Assembly (NCBI GenBank): GCA_051294375.1
Contig: CM119264.1
Coordinates: 27,447,469-27,511,468 of the forward strand
Source of the DNA: Paraspadella gotoi
Taxonomy: Eukaryota > Animalia > Chaetognatha
Direction of reading: 5' to 3'
Length of the DNA stretch: 64,000 nucleotides
Shown here: positions 9,683 to 59,800 of the stretch, one piece after another
Position numbering within the stretch: position 1 is the first letter of the stretch
Layout of the letters: each line of letters begins with the position of its first letter
Made by a program: the position numbers and the translations under genes
Notes under the pieces: generated by a model
Told to the model about the DNA's origin: nothing
Database searches by the model: none
The model's input: the letters and a program-made list of their open reading frames with translations, nothing else

Positions 9683-9945
9683 ATTCTATGGTGGACTAAA
9701 ACCCACCAACCGTTCATCAGCGGCCATTGGTGCCGGAGGCAAGTCATTCGCCTCCCAACCCAAAGGTCCGGGGTTCTAGCCCGGTGGTCGTCTGGCAGTT
9801 TAGAGGGACGGGGCGCTTAACCCGCCTGTAACATGGTGTTACAGCCTGATCCGAAGCTCAGGGACTGCTTATATTGAACGGTTCTATCACTAACTCATAA
9901 CAATAATTACTGTCTCTTCAATTCTTCCCTTTTTTAATTTTTATG
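9683..9945 (+). mobile_element. tRNA-derived SINE-like element carrying a twister-like ribozyme
   Basis: A-box-like TGGTGCCGGAGG (~9728) and B box GGTTCTAGCCC (~9772). 15-bp direct repeat TTAAATAAAAATTTC at 9668-9682 and 9946-9960. Confidence 0.7.
9794..9869 (+). ncRNA. Candidate type-P5 twister ribozyme
   Basis: P5 GGCAGTT/GACTGCT; GAC-GG (9807-9811); T^AA at 9818-9820; GC; P3 CTGTAACA/TGTTACAG; P4 CCTGA/TCAGG closing loop TCCGAAGC. P2 is one base short (CCC vs GAGG). Confidence 0.75.
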
Positions 9946-11096
9946 TTAAATAAAAATTTCGCGATAATAACTGGACTATTTCACTTTACCCTGACCGTTT
10001 GATATGTAAATGGCTAAATACAAGAAAAAGAAAAAAAATTGCGAGCCCTTCAGACATATGGCTATCGGATTCCTGAATTCGAAGTTTATTGTAAAATCAC
10101 AACATATCTTAAATGCGTTGACATTGTATTGAAGTTGAGAAATCCCTTTATTATATAAAAATTGAGTCAAAAGTATTTTCCCGAGCGGACCAGTCCATTT
10201 GAAAAAGTCTTCCTCGATTTCTAAGAACGACGTAGACTCCTAATATAACGCTATTTCTTTTTAATTTTGAAAAAATATAAATGAAAAGTATAGAGTTATC
10301 GAAAAACTATTGAAAAACTTGAAAAACTATTGAAAAACTTGAATTGGTTTAGGCAATAGAATATAGCAAGACTTTAAAGTCAGAGTCTCAAACGGAATTG
10401 GGAAAAAATTATTTCCAAAGTTTTAGAGTTTATGACACTTCTTTTTCTGACTGGTGTTTACAATATAGAATTGACAAAATCATAATGGAATTAAACCTAT
10501 AAAAGGGTCGGCAATAAATTTGCTTTACTTTTCTATAAATATATTTTTAGCAGATTCGAAAAAACGAAAGTTTTTAATATTTTTACAACGAATTTTATTA
10601 CTAATTATTGGACATATTTCGACTCTTGTTTTGTTCGAGTCTTATGAACAATGAAAAGAGAGAAAATACACAAAAATATTTTTTTAATTCCTACAAAATA
10701 TAGTATATTTATTAATAAATTCTGAAAAGTGAAAACAATCATTTTAAAAAAAAATATCTTAAAATCAAAAAGTACTTTTATGACAAAAATAAAAAAATTC
10801 GTTTTAATATAATTGTGAGATTTTATTTTAGTCTGCTTCAACACGAGATGCCATAAGAAAAAAAACCTAGATGTGAAAAAACTTTGAAAGTAATCTTGGG
10901 TAACCATAGCCAATGAAATTTAAATTATAATGTATACAGCATTAAAATAGTTTTTCATGAGCATAGATTATGGTAGGGGTAGCCTTATTCAATGGGTGAG
11001 TCTAAAATTTAGAATGAGTACATGCTCAAACGAAATTCTTATACATTATGGCAACGGGAGTAGCCTGTGATACCCGGGGCGCGGGTATCTCACCAA

Positions 11097-11175
11097 CTGG
11101 CATAGGGCTGCGGACCCTCAGTGACCGCCTCCTGTCACTGGCATGTTTATACCGGCACCATCACATTTAAGCCAG
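11097..11175 (-). ncRNA. Candidate type-P5 twister ribozyme in the 3' LTR
   Basis: Minus strand CTGGC-TTAA-ATGT-GAT-GG-TGCCGGTA-T^AA-ACAT-GC-CAGTGAC..GTCACTG-AGGG-TCCGCAGC-CCT-AT-GCCAG. P5, P2, P3, P4 and both pseudoknots can form. Predicted cut between 11149 and 11148. Confidence 0.75.
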
Positions 11176-11189
11176 AACCGGGATACCCA

Positions 11190-55626: not shown

Positions 55627-55804
55627 CAAGATTGTCCCCTCTTTCCATAACCCTTTCGATGTTTTTGCTCATAACGTCCTTGACATCGTTGACTTGAGAT
55701 CTGAGTTGTGCCACGCGTTGATTTCCCGGATCTCCGGGTTCCGACGAGACGACGCCCGTTGCGGCGCCGGACGCCGCGCCCGATGCCGGGCCAGACGATG
55801 CCAT
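55627..55804 (-). CDS. VAMP8: VAMP8-like R-SNARE exon 1 (136-aa protein when spliced)
   Basis: QRVAQLRSQVNDVKDVMSKNIERVMERGDNL with the zero-layer Arg; GTGAGT donor at 55626. Family is certain, exact orthology (VAMP8 vs VAMP7/3) is not. Confidence 0.9.
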
Positions 55805-56844
55805 CCTCTTCGTGAGGGTCGACGGAGAGAGTGAGAGAGAGTTACAAGGAGTGAGAGTAAGAGCTCTTGGGATCGGGAAGAAAAAAAAATTCCAGCGACT
55901 CTCGCCTTTATTCGAGTCGGCGTTCGGTGGACGGAAGTTTTTCGCTCAGATTCTAGGAAAGAGAAGAGAGAGAGAGAAGAGAGAGAGAGAGAGAGAGAGA
56001 AGAAAGAGAAAGAGAGAGAGGAGAGAGAGAGAGAGAGAGAGACAGACAGACAGACAGAGAGAGATTCCTAGTTATTTATTCCACCGCCAGCGCGATGGAT
56101 TATCGTCGGGGCGAACGTCCGTATTTATATTCGATCCACGAACCAGTTTGCCGTTTTTTTTTCGGCACGAGATGGTGTGAGAGCGAATTAGAGAGAGCGG
56201 AAGCGAGAGAGAGATAGAGATGGAGAGAACAGAGGTCGAATTGCGTAGCGTTTTCAAAGGCGTTTATCCGACGATAAAAGTCAGTTAACCGTAAACAGAG
56301 GATCCTGGAAAGCCTTGTTTGGCAGAAACTGGGGAAGCACAGAGAGAGAAGCAGAGAGAGAGACAAGAAGAGAGAGAGAGAGAAGAGAGAAGAGAGAGAG
56401 AGAAGAGAGAGAGGAGAGAGAGAGAGAGAGAGAGAAAGAGATAGCAGAGGCGTGCGGAGAAGGACCAATCAGAATCGGGTAAGGCTGTTTTGGTTGGGTT
56501 GTTGGAAAGAAATTCTTTCGAAATAAGAAAACAAAAGACTTTTCTCGTTTATATCCACAGACAACGCAGTTAGATTAGATTAAGATAATTTAGATTCCGT
56601 CGTTCAAGTCGGGAATAGATTATATATATTTATTATTTAGTATGTACAAAAAAATAAGAATATTATGTTCGATATGTTCGTCCACAATATCTTTATTATG
56701 AGTTTTAAACAAAATGTAATAGTTAATACAGGACAAATAATTTTTTTTTTTAATATGAGCAAAAAGCCTCGTCATTACTCTCTCTCTCTCTCTCTCTCTC
56801 TCTCTCTCTCTCTCTCTCTCTCTCTCTCCCACTCCCTCTTACAG

Positions 56845-59800
56845 GACGGTGGAGGAGAAATCCCGGAACATCGCCGAGTTCGCGGGCAGCAGCGGCCTCG
56901 ACACAATATCCTCCAGATTGGGAGGAGGGGATCTCGAAACTTCGCCAGAGCATTTATCTCAAAAAGAGGACATATCATCCAAATCATCATCAAACAGTGA
57001 GCCTTGTTTGGATGATTTAAGAAATTTGATTGATTGATTTGATTTTGGAAATTAAGTTTAGGCAGATGATTAAGATTGATTGATTGCTTCAATGATAGAC
57101 CCATAAGCTTATGATATCATCTATTTACCTACACTGAGTCCCCCTGAAGAGATTAATTTCAATTTTTAGATCAATTTTTAGTTTCTGGATTAGTAGTTGA
57201 TCTTTAAAAATCTGTCATTTTGTGATTGTCTCATAATGATTCATCCACGTTCCTCCTCCAGCTGTGCTACCGAAAAACCAAATTCTTTCAACTTCGTTCA
57301 TTCCTCAAGATTCTTCATTATCATCAGACACATATCAGGCAAGCGCGAGAACGATCAAAGTGAACTGATTTGATTGATCGATCGATCGATTGCACTTTTC
57401 AGAAACCTGTGATCCTCCCTCAATCTGAAAAGCCTCCGCCAACATCCTCACCCGCCTCATCAGCTCCCGTAGCTACACCAGCGAATTCCTCGACTACATC
57501 AACTCCAGCAAAACCTTGGACGTCGTCGTCAACAGCGGCGTCGATTGATCTGTCTGCGTCGACGACGAATTCCTCTAGAATTTCCTCGACCGAAGATTCG
57601 ATCCGAAAGAAGGAAAAACGAATCGGGACGGATTCCATCGAGGTAACCTTTGAGGCGGTCGGGTAAGTGGGGGGGTTTCCCCAAAACGCCTCATTTCATT
57701 CTAAATTCGGAAAGAAGTTTTTTTTTGTTTTAATAATTTATTTTTATAAATATGGCTAAGGTTTTTATTAACTATTATTAGGTTAAAGATTTGGGATATT
57801 TTTTTTGTTCCTTTATCCCGAAATGTTATTTTAACTTTAATAATTAATTTAAACATATAACCCTAACCTTATTCCTAAACCTTAACTTAATCCTAAACTT
57901 TAACAATAAACTTATATTCTTAATTTTCAACCCTAGCCCCTATCCTTAAACCCTAACCCTAATTAATATAGAATAAAGCGTTCTGGGAAAATAAGGCCAA
58001 TTAAGATTAGAAATTAATTTTTACGGATAGGGGTTAGATAAGGATAAGGGATTAAGGTATTAAATAACGGAAAGGAGCGCTTTTAGAAAAGAGAGCCAAA
58101 AGGAAACCCCTCTTTCGATTCAGACGGCGCAACTCGTTTCCTCCGCAAATTACGAAGGTATCGAATCAGAAAATCCACGTCTGCCTCATCAAAGTCGAGC
58201 TCCGCCGAACTCGACTCGGACTTTGCCGGATCCTACCGGAGGTCCGCCGAACTCGACTCGGACTTTGCCGAATCCGAGTCGGGCTTTGCCGAATCCGACT
58301 GCCGCTGACACGAATCAAACCGGCGCTTTGCCTCCTTTCTCTACCTCGGACCGAAATCCTGCCGGTACGAGTTTCATCTTGACGAATTGAAAAGATTAAC
58401 TGATTTTTTAAATAATCTCCAGCTCTTAACTCTTAACATTGGAATATTGATTAAGAATCATTATATTGTCTATCATCTTTGAATTCGTTGCGTTTGAAAT
58501 GATTTAAACGAAAAGAGTTACATTTCTTTTTACCGACATGTTTAGACTAAATTGTTAGCATTCGTCAGCGCAATTGAGATATTGCAATACAATATACCAT
58601 TATAAATTATACAATGCATGTATTTAATATCATTATCCTATCGAAGAATATTATATATATTGTGGCGGTATATTCACACCGACGTTCAGCCAATACCATT
58701 GGCTCAGAGGGGGAACACACCATCCCAGGCGTAGTGTTCCATCCACAGTCCTAACGACTTCCCTCTTCGTTGGCAAAGCTAGACCGTCCTTGGGTAACCG
58801 CGCCAGTGACTGGAGGCGTCACTGAAAGTCGGAAACCTACAAAGCCAACGTTAAGATGACGCATCCCAATGGGCATCACAGGCAACCCGACTGTAGCCAT
58901 AATATACTAATTCTGTAATAAGGAAGCTAGTAACAGCCTGCGGAGATTTGCTAAAACTTTAAATATTGTCCCAATTTCACAAAGTTAATAATAATTAAAA
59001 ACCCGCCTACCCCCTCCATCATTTCTACTCCACAAGTCCCATCGACGAACGCCCTCGACGCCCCCGAGCCACTCCAACGGGTCTCCAAGGAGGGAGACCA
59101 TCTTCCGGGCGAAGCCTCTCCGGACGCGAGTCTCACATCCTCGCCGTCTCTTTCCGAAGGCGAAGGGAATTCGTCGACGGTGAAGCGAAGACCCAAGGTC
59201 GAGCCTTTAAAGGAGGCCGTTAAGGACAACCCTACCCAAGCGCTCGTCGACGCCGGGAGGCCGCGAGGTAAGTGAGAAGGGTAAGGGCGCCAGTCTAACG
59301 AGTATTTAAAGTTAATATTTTTATAAAATATTTAGTTATTATCAGTTATTTAAATTTGAATATTGGTATCTAACGAATTATATACTGAGAGGGAAGCCAA
59401 GTACTCTGGGAGTAAATAAACCAAACTGTGCTCAAGAGAGTCTTGATTAAGAGCTTTCAGGGACCTTCTATGTCATTATTTTATAAGAATGATGGAGGCC
59501 TTAAACCCCCAAAGCCTGTCCAAAGTCAGGGGCAAGATAGCTTATTTATTAAATGAAGGGATAATTCTTATATTTTGATATTTAATACTGCAGTATTAAC
59601 TTTTTTATTGATTAAAATTAATCAAAATAAACCTCAGACAATTGGTTTCGTGATCGATCATGCAGATCTATGGATGAACAAACAGACGATTAAAAACGAA
59701 TAATGATAATAATAATAATAATAATTAAAACGAAAATAATTACGCCAACAATTAACGACGGAGCCTATTTGCGCCTCGCGTCGTTATTCGCGATAGAAAC

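Follow-up and report, generated by a model that had tools for sequence, protein, structure and literature searches.

The Helenus elements (TRIMp3) are miniature retrotransposons with terminal repeats (TRIMs), defined by transfer RNA (tRNA)-like promoter boxes within their long terminal repeats (LTRs) together with a primer-binding site (PBS), a polypurine tract (PPT) and, in animals, a 4-bp target-site duplication (TSD); Kojima gives them several origins, and their transcription by RNA polymerase III (Pol III) is unproven (PMC10886601; this and the other papers named here are cited for the excerpts that we consulted). In the model for plant LTR retrozymes the RNA has no R region and a circle serves as the template for reverse transcription (Cervera et al. 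2016, PMC4918200), and RtcB circularises such RNAs efficiently (PMC7229834). LTR retrozymes are described primarily in plants, with type III hammerheads (PMC7761336, PMC7229834), and the animal retrozymes described in the excerpted sources lack LTR, PBS and PPT (PMC7761336, PMC7229834, bioRxiv 10.64898/2026.07.22.740005). Twister ribozymes are common in eukaryotic genomes and are described in permuted forms (PMC10085705, PMC6765202); the one role that we found described for them is 5′ processing of RTE-type LINEs (long interspersed nuclear elements); they sit at RTE 5′ ends (PMC8501958, PMC7761336). Here we analyse a 64,000-nt stretch of the chaetognath Paraspadella gotoi (contig CM119264.1 of GCA_051294375.1, positions 27,447,469 to 27,511,468; hereafter the window), in which five motifs within the LTRs of TRIMs very probably are, or descend from, twister ribozymes. 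The copies, named by their approximate positions in the window, are as follows:

9794–9869, + strand: type-P5 twister motif (9.8 kb copy) whose P2 strand has 3 nt and whose 6-nt P1 slot is a palindrome; predicted cut after 9818
11097–11175, − strand: twister motif in the 3′ LTR of the full element (11.1 kb copy); predicted cut after 11149
11568–11647, − strand: type-P5 twister motif in the 5′ LTR (11.6 kb copy), fully paired; predicted to be cut between U 11621 and A 11620
12777–12860, − strand: twister motif (12.8 kb copy), partly decayed, mismatched in P3 and in P4; predicted cut after 12832
58768–58850, + strand: twister motif (58.8 kb copy), decayed, with P2, P4 and the pseudoknot T2 broken and the pseudoknot T1 kept by compensatory change; predicted cut after 58795

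All five copies share the order P5 – P2′ – GA – T1′ – P1 slot – UAA – P2 – GC – P3 – P4 – U-T1-(A/C)A-GC – P4′ – P5′. Judged by this order and its letters, the motif is a circularly permuted twister that is opened at P5 and encloses its cut site (type-P5). The type-P5 twister reportedly goes back to Roth et al. 2014. The same letters in the same order make up the published twister core, UAA-P2-GC-P3-P4-U-T1-AA-GC plus GA-T1 (Table 1, PMC8501958), and core order and letters also agree with the Rfam twister-P1 consensus line. UAA, GC, GA, the U, the second A of loop 4 and the final C are present in 5/5 copies and the loop-4 G is absent from the 58.8 kb copy, and the four families agree at 10 of the 11 core positions (GA, UAA, GC, U, A, G, C). 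A preliminary description of this DNA had listed GA(T/C) among the invariant letters and a pseudoknot of 2 bp; its GA, TAA and GC stand, the variable base turns out to be the first, covarying base of T1 rather than core, and T1 comprises 3 bp. It is paired in 5/5 copies (CGG/CCG at 11.6 kb, TGG/CCG at 11.1 kb, TGG/CCA at 12.8 kb, CGG/CCG at 9.8 kb and CCG/CGG at 58.8 kb) with two double-sided changes, and a further pseudoknot, T2, in which a GC joins that of loop 4, is paired in 4/5 copies and mismatched at 58.8 kb.

The stems that had been listed are all present, namely P5 in all five copies (a 6-bp stem at 12.8 kb), P2 as ATGT/ACAT versus GTGT/ACAC, P3 as CAGTGAC/GTCACTG versus CTGTAACA/TGTTACAG, and P4 as AGGG/CCCT versus CCTGA/TCAGG. 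This list was confined to intact stems and left out the broken ones, which are P2 and P4 at 58.8 kb (2/4 positions paired in each), P3 and P4 at 12.8 kb (4/7 and 3/4 paired) and P2 at 9.8 kb, where the 5′ strand is just 3 nt long. P2 and P4 are both complete only in the 11.6 kb copy, the 3′ strand of P4 in the 11.1 kb copy being one C shorter than in its sister LTR. These two copies sit in direct repeats that are 96% alike (252 and 255 nt) and form the LTR pair of a single element, which reduces the five copies earlier taken as independent to four.

The core pattern alone is at chance level (7 matches in the window, where 50 simulated windows average 3.5). Requiring the core, P5 and at least one further stem returns exactly these 5 matches, against an average of 0.38 and at most 3 over 300 simulated windows, and requiring at least two further stems returns 4 versus 0.06, in a test that is favourable by design as the descriptor was drawn up from these same copies. 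Core-only matches at 19301 and 63283 and a loose match at 21372 lacked the stems and were rejected. A covariance model built from the five copies found no sixth in the window (next matches E 0.89 and 1.3), a pattern scan for relatives in viral contigs gave 0 matches, and 4 pattern matches in metagenome contigs were dropped as chance since the upstream GA/UAA context was present in 0/4.

In a five-row MAFFT alignment 83.5% of 97 cells are paired, versus 73.0 ± 2.2 when shuffled and 28–38% when slid, and 8/20 pairs change on both sides, a count equalled in 1/500 shuffles; both counts use a structure derived from the same rows, of which only four are independent, and relatives can outscore shuffles. 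The double-sided changes lie in T1, P2 and P4, and on a hand register also in P3. MAFFT misplaces the 3′ strand of P3 in the 9.8 kb row and that of P4 in the 11.1 kb row, which lowers the pair counts, and a covariation statistic of R-scape grade would take more than four independent families. Folding energies are unremarkable (z −1.8 to +0.1), as computed by a program that ignores pseudoknots. The double-sided changes and the shared core support the earlier view of a fold conserved across diverged subfamilies, apart from its overcounting of independent copies, and from the sequences we infer selection on catalysis across the four families.

Against an almost uniform core the 5′ flanks vary widely, and taken whole the ribozyme is just slightly more conserved than its flanks. 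Between families the 5′ flanks are 53–64% alike (51–52% when shuffled) and the whole ribozymes 54–71%, the ribozyme value being higher than that of the 5′ flank in 4/6 pairs, equal in 1 and lower in 1; between the 11 and 58.8 kb families the ribozyme is no more alike than the 3′ flank. In run X1 the young 9.8 kb family has 15 sites that vary at ≥8%; with 5 of them in the 76-nt ribozyme and 10 in the remaining 158 nt, variable sites are equally dense inside and outside the ribozyme. None of the 15 is a core base, as would happen by chance in about half of cases with sites this dense. A variant at 9853 (CpG) that breaks one T1 pair accounts for 13% of depth in run X1, 2% in X5 and 4% in X9. There is no indel at ≥8% in this family, and in 4/4 runs no P2-strand insertion reaches that level, so that a short P2 strand is native to this family.

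The elements that carry the motifs have these parts:

11047–11769, − strand: full TRIM of 723 bp in which two LTRs enclose a non-coding interior of 216 bp, ends TGTGGCA..TGCCATA
11043–11046 and 11770–11773: 4-bp target duplication of the full TRIM, ACAT on the + strand
11515–11769, − strand: 5′ LTR, 255 nt, with A box (11703–11714), B box (11662–11672), twister and 3′ segment
11047–11298, − strand: 3′ LTR, 252 nt, with A box (11231–11242) and B box (11190–11200)
11500–11512, − strand: PBS directly after the 5′ LTR, 12/13 nt identical by eye to the tRNA-Trp-CCA PBS of Gypsy-32_NVi and Helenus-2_SyJa
11302–11311, − strand: PPT, 3 nt ahead of the 3′ LTR
9687–9920, + strand: solo LTR of a very abundant family, 234 nt, duplication ATTC, with A-box-like motif (9728–9739) and B box (9772–9782)
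12765–12982, − strand: LTR of a third family, 3′ end cut short, with A box (12914–12925) and B box (12872–12882)
58661–58901, + strand: solo LTR of a fourth family, 241 nt, duplication ATAT, with A box (58700–58711) and no canonical B box

By the A and B boxes and the 4-bp TSDs and, in the one full element, two LTRs, a PBS, a PPT and a short non-coding interior, the twister-bearing elements are Helenus-like TRIMs. Exact 4-bp duplications flank 3/3 complete elements (about 0.9% chance each), the LTR termini are of the TG..TA or TA..CA type, and there is no A-rich tail. The layout is shared as well, with the A box at LTR position 40–58, the B box at 86–101, the ribozyme start at 108–124 and the U-A site at 132–151, leaving about 130–150 nt, including the twister, downstream of the B box. 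The B box (GGTTC) is found in 4/5 twister LTRs and is missing at 58.8 kb, and the A box reads TGGCT in 4/5 and TGGTG at 9.8 kb (consensus TRGCY..YGG). ARAGORN found 0 tRNA genes in the window. Public contigs have loose ends at 9687 and at 9920–9922 (three runs), which sets the boundaries of the 9.8 kb LTR, and contig depth summed over 9687–9920 is very high, a figure that is not a copy number. Most differences between the two LTRs of the full element are single-base gains or losses in runs of C, among them the one that shortens P4 in the 3′ LTR; assembly error is a possible source of these indels. The 12.8 kb unit starts like the other LTRs and breaks off at 12765, where it adjoins another repeated element with loose ends at 12712 and 12743. 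On the + strand, 11470–11512 in the primer-site region resembles a tRNA T arm and acceptor over about 30 nt, beyond the usual length of a primer site (by eye).

Given this layout, the type-P5 twisters in these LTRs likely act as the hammerheads of plant LTR retrozymes do, by a predicted sequence of self-cleavage in two LTRs, circularisation and reverse transcription. Transcription by Pol III would begin at the 5′ LTR's tRNA-type boxes and run on through the element, and predicted self-cleavage at the U-A sites of both LTRs would free a 472-nt unit without a terminal repeat. As the promoter boxes lie upstream of the predicted cut, they would be carried at the 3′ end of this unit and restored in both new LTRs. 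A host ligase of the RtcB type would close the circle, rebuilding the ribozyme across the junction with the promoter upstream of it, a Gypsy reverse transcriptase primed by tRNA-Trp would copy round the circle and so rebuild two LTRs, and a Gypsy integrase would insert the DNA with its 4-bp duplication. The predicted 472-nt circle is more stable than 40/40 dinucleotide shuffles (z −2.7), and the GC content of the element is 57%.

The P1 slot forms a stable hairpin in 0/5 copies, and it is self-complementary at 8/8 positions in the 11 kb family and 6/6 in the 9.8 kb family (two wobbles in each), the two best-preserved families, within the top 1% of self-pairing LTR k-mers. Because the slot is a near-palindrome that is unable to fold as a hairpin, P1 probably forms between two LTR copies, and the sequences suggest pairing between LTR copies as its simplest reading. 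Minimal hammerheads, for comparison, cleave as dimers (PMC7761336, PMC7229834). If P1 is indeed shared between copies, then transcripts with two LTRs would be cut well and solo LTRs poorly.

A number of results count against a working, circle-forming twister. The Rfam scan of the whole 64-kb window and that of 9770–9900, spanning the 9.8 kb copy, recognised no ribozyme; the twister-P1 model weakly matches the 3′ half of the 11.6 kb copy (17.6 bits, E 0.17, with a gathering threshold of 67.2 bits), and the twister-P5 model never matched, with 2/5 copies scanned one by one. Loop 4 of the 11 kb family has CA in place of the usual AA, the published twister examples compared have a 4-nt P2 where the most abundant (9.8 kb) family has a 3-nt strand, and two of the four families are seen as decayed copies. 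At 12.8 kb the P1 palindrome does not stand out, 42% of LTR 8-mers being equally stable, and at 58.8 kb, where 12% of LTR k-mers are as stable, it is modest. With 64% pairing the predicted circle stays under the 70% that is cited for animal retrozymes. In the full element the sense strand has no TTT and the other strand has 9 such runs, but 1306/5000 dinucleotide shuffles also lack TTT, and the absence of T runs is therefore not significant as evidence for Pol III. Finally, the window holds just one full element, and no autonomous partner was found in it, a Pfam family being present in 0/11 ORFs (open reading frames) tested of 61 listed.

The position of the twister within the LTR can be occupied by other ribozyme motifs. 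A fifth family in the window has a different motif behind its B box:

2888–3152, − strand: element resembling a solo LTR, from a fifth family, with ends TGTAG..CTACT, the duplication TAAA and both A and B boxes
about 3031–2990, − strand: minimal type I hammerhead-like motif behind the B box; predicted cut after 3001 (LTR position 152)

This motif consists of a stem I of −9.8 kcal, CUGAGGA, a very short stem II and GAAA, with no stem III. It occurs 0.04 times per simulated window and in 2/20000 shuffles of the LTR tail, with an energy threshold that was set after the motif had been seen, and Rfam did not recognise it on 2860–3160. Further GC-rich hairpins follow it within the element. Among published elements, the gall-wasp LTRs of Helenus-2_SyJa and Helenus-2_SyUm (Data S1, PMC10886601) have a type III hammerhead after the B box when read by eye, with GUC near LTR position 150, a 7-bp stem I, CUGAUGA, a 4-bp stem II, GAAA, a 6-bp stem III and loops that are complementary. 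The two are the Helenus families whose primer site is of the tRNA-Trp type, and their hammerheads go unremarked in the excerpted text of that paper. No twister was seen by eye in the animal entries of the same Data S1.

If the twister is active, it could also yield a linear template, only the 3′ LTR being cut in place of a Pol III terminator; the repeat of about 100 nt from the start to the cut site would then be kept at both ends for ordinary strand transfer. Many ribozyme-free Helenus LTRs show a T run right behind the tRNA-like part (by eye) and the twister LTRs have no sense-strand T4, as this scheme would have it, and an ordinary LTR cycle requires no ligase. With the same motif in both LTRs, however, one-sided cutting needs an extra mechanism, and plant LTR retrozymes of the same layout do produce circles (PMC4918200); we hold the linear template to be unlikely, though it is the first alternative to consider. 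The twister may instead be a passenger, brought into an ancestral LTR with a tRNA-headed short interspersed nuclear element (SINE) or an RTE-type 5′ end and surviving as a relic that the TRIM can dispense with. Such a history would suit Kojima's proposal of a SINE inserted into an LTR as the origin of Helenus (PMC10886601), the RTE elements headed by twisters (PMC8501958), the decayed copies that represent two of the four families, and the variable sites of the 9.8 kb family, which are no rarer in the ribozyme than in its flanks. A relic would nevertheless hardly keep its core and position in four families that differ by compensatory changes while their flanks are near random identity; in addition the RTE-associated twisters in the table of PMC8501958, as excerpted, have the P1 order and not P5, and a different ribozyme class occupies the same slot in other families. 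We accordingly regard a passenger twister as improbable.

The remaining explanations are much weaker. That the elements are tRNA-derived SINEs with a ribozyme, their LTR features being coincidental, finds some precedent in the tRNA-like head upstream of the ribozyme and in the schistosome SINE-like repeats that join a Pol III promoter to a hammerhead (PMC6765202); yet two direct repeats 96% alike enclose a PBS and a PPT, TG..TA or TA..CA termini lie 40–58 nt ahead of the A box, the insertions have 4-bp duplications and no A-rich tail, and the 9.8 kb boundaries are already fixed by the loose ends of public contigs, all of which makes this origin very improbable. That these are chance hairpins in GC-rich repeats joined to a short motif is scarcely credible: although the core pattern alone is at chance level, the folding z-scores are weak and Rfam stays below threshold, the full descriptor matches only five places, all in the same LTR slot and with a covarying 3-bp pseudoknot.

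Taking the twister and hammerhead families together, we tentatively put forward, as a proposal that may well prove wrong, that animals have true LTR retrozymes in the form of a Pol III-driven branch of TRIMs. In these a fixed slot about 130–150 nt from the LTR start would be filled interchangeably by a type-P5 twister or by a hammerhead, either of type III or of the minimal type I, and the twister and minimal-hammerhead forms would cut only when LTR copies pair by their palindrome, such that full elements give circles and solo LTRs stay silent. The parts of the twister-bearing elements are known, and their combination, a twister with a Pol III-type promoter in a Gypsy-type TRIM, is new within the literature searched. 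The excerpts of PMC6765202, PMC10085705, PMC5680766 and PMC13725137 contain no twister in an LTR, and we found no published description of a twister-bearing TRIM by title and start of abstract, although the lists of Roth et al. 2014, Repbase and Dfam may hold such motifs without their context. If the retrozyme-like cycle holds, the P5 permutation gains a role, the circular-intermediate strategy of LTR retrozymes extends past plants and past the hammerhead, and there is an answer to how an LTR element transcribed by Pol III sets its RNA ends. It also joins two fields, Pol III TRIMs and retrozymes, that cite each other just in passing, and it supplies a search rule, namely to look for more ribozymes in the slot that follows the B box in LTRs like these.

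The window has further features. At about 9195–9240 (− strand) there is a minimal type I hammerhead motif of the Penelope-like-element kind, with CUGAUGA, a 5-bp stem II, GAAA and a palindromic stem III, and a degenerate relative of it lies near 10615–10650. A hydrophobic ORF of 644 codons at 13539–15473 (− strand) has no Pfam match and a weak XK-related lead from eukaryotic clusters of the ESM Atlas (score 0.88, 11% of members). Together, this lead, the hammerhead motif near 9.2 kb and the 4-bp duplications point to a eukaryotic and probably animal host. Positions 1–91 and 390–480 form a perfect 91-nt inverted repeat round two N gaps, which may be an assembly artefact, and diverged duplications spaced by about 3.9 kb and 10.2–10.6 kb lie amid AG microsatellites at about 31.9–36.3, 41.6–47.4 and 52–54 kb.

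Set against known systems, the elements resemble Helenus TRIMs (Kojima 2024, PMC10886601) in being non-coding and under 1.3 kb, with A and B boxes in their LTRs, a PBS, a PPT and a 4-bp TSD, and also in having many solo LTRs, several families per genome and, from consensus sequences compared by eye, the tRNA-Trp PBS of Helenus-2_SyJa. They differ in their ribozyme, the excerpted text of that paper having no 'twister' and the word 'ribozyme' only in a reference title, and in the about 130–150 nt with a twister that follow the B box, whereas in most animal Helenus LTRs the tRNA-like part is near the 3′ end. The motif shares with the type-P5 twister (Rfam clan CL00120) the opening at P5, UAA, GC, GA, a loop 4 of U-NNN-(A/C)A-GC and both T1 and T2; unlike it, the motif keeps a long P3, has a 6–8-nt near-palindrome without a stable hairpin as P1 and, in one family, a short P2, and scores below the Rfam thresholds. 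With the twister T-variants of Perere-3 (RTE) of Schistosoma mansoni (PMC8501958) it has in common that it serves a retrotransposon, a very similar core and P3 start, and a weak P1, but those twisters have the P1 order, stand at the 5′ end of a non-LTR element and have their P1 completed by the target site, whereas here the ribozyme lies wholly within the LTR. Compared with plant LTR retrozymes (PMC4918200), a twister takes the place of the type III hammerhead, the predicted unit is 472 nt rather than 600–1000 nt, and the PBS is tRNA-Trp-like rather than tRNA-Met; the internal tRNA-type promoter is a further difference, as retrozymes seem to harbour none (PMC7761336), an LTR promoter being mentioned in PMC9695139. 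Like plant LTR retrozymes, the elements are non-coding, with a ribozyme in each LTR, a Gypsy-type PBS and PPT, a 4-bp TSD, a cut-to-cut unit without an R region and a GC content above 55%. By its twister order and core such an element, while not an LTR retrozyme in the strict sense, may thus work in a retrozyme-like manner.

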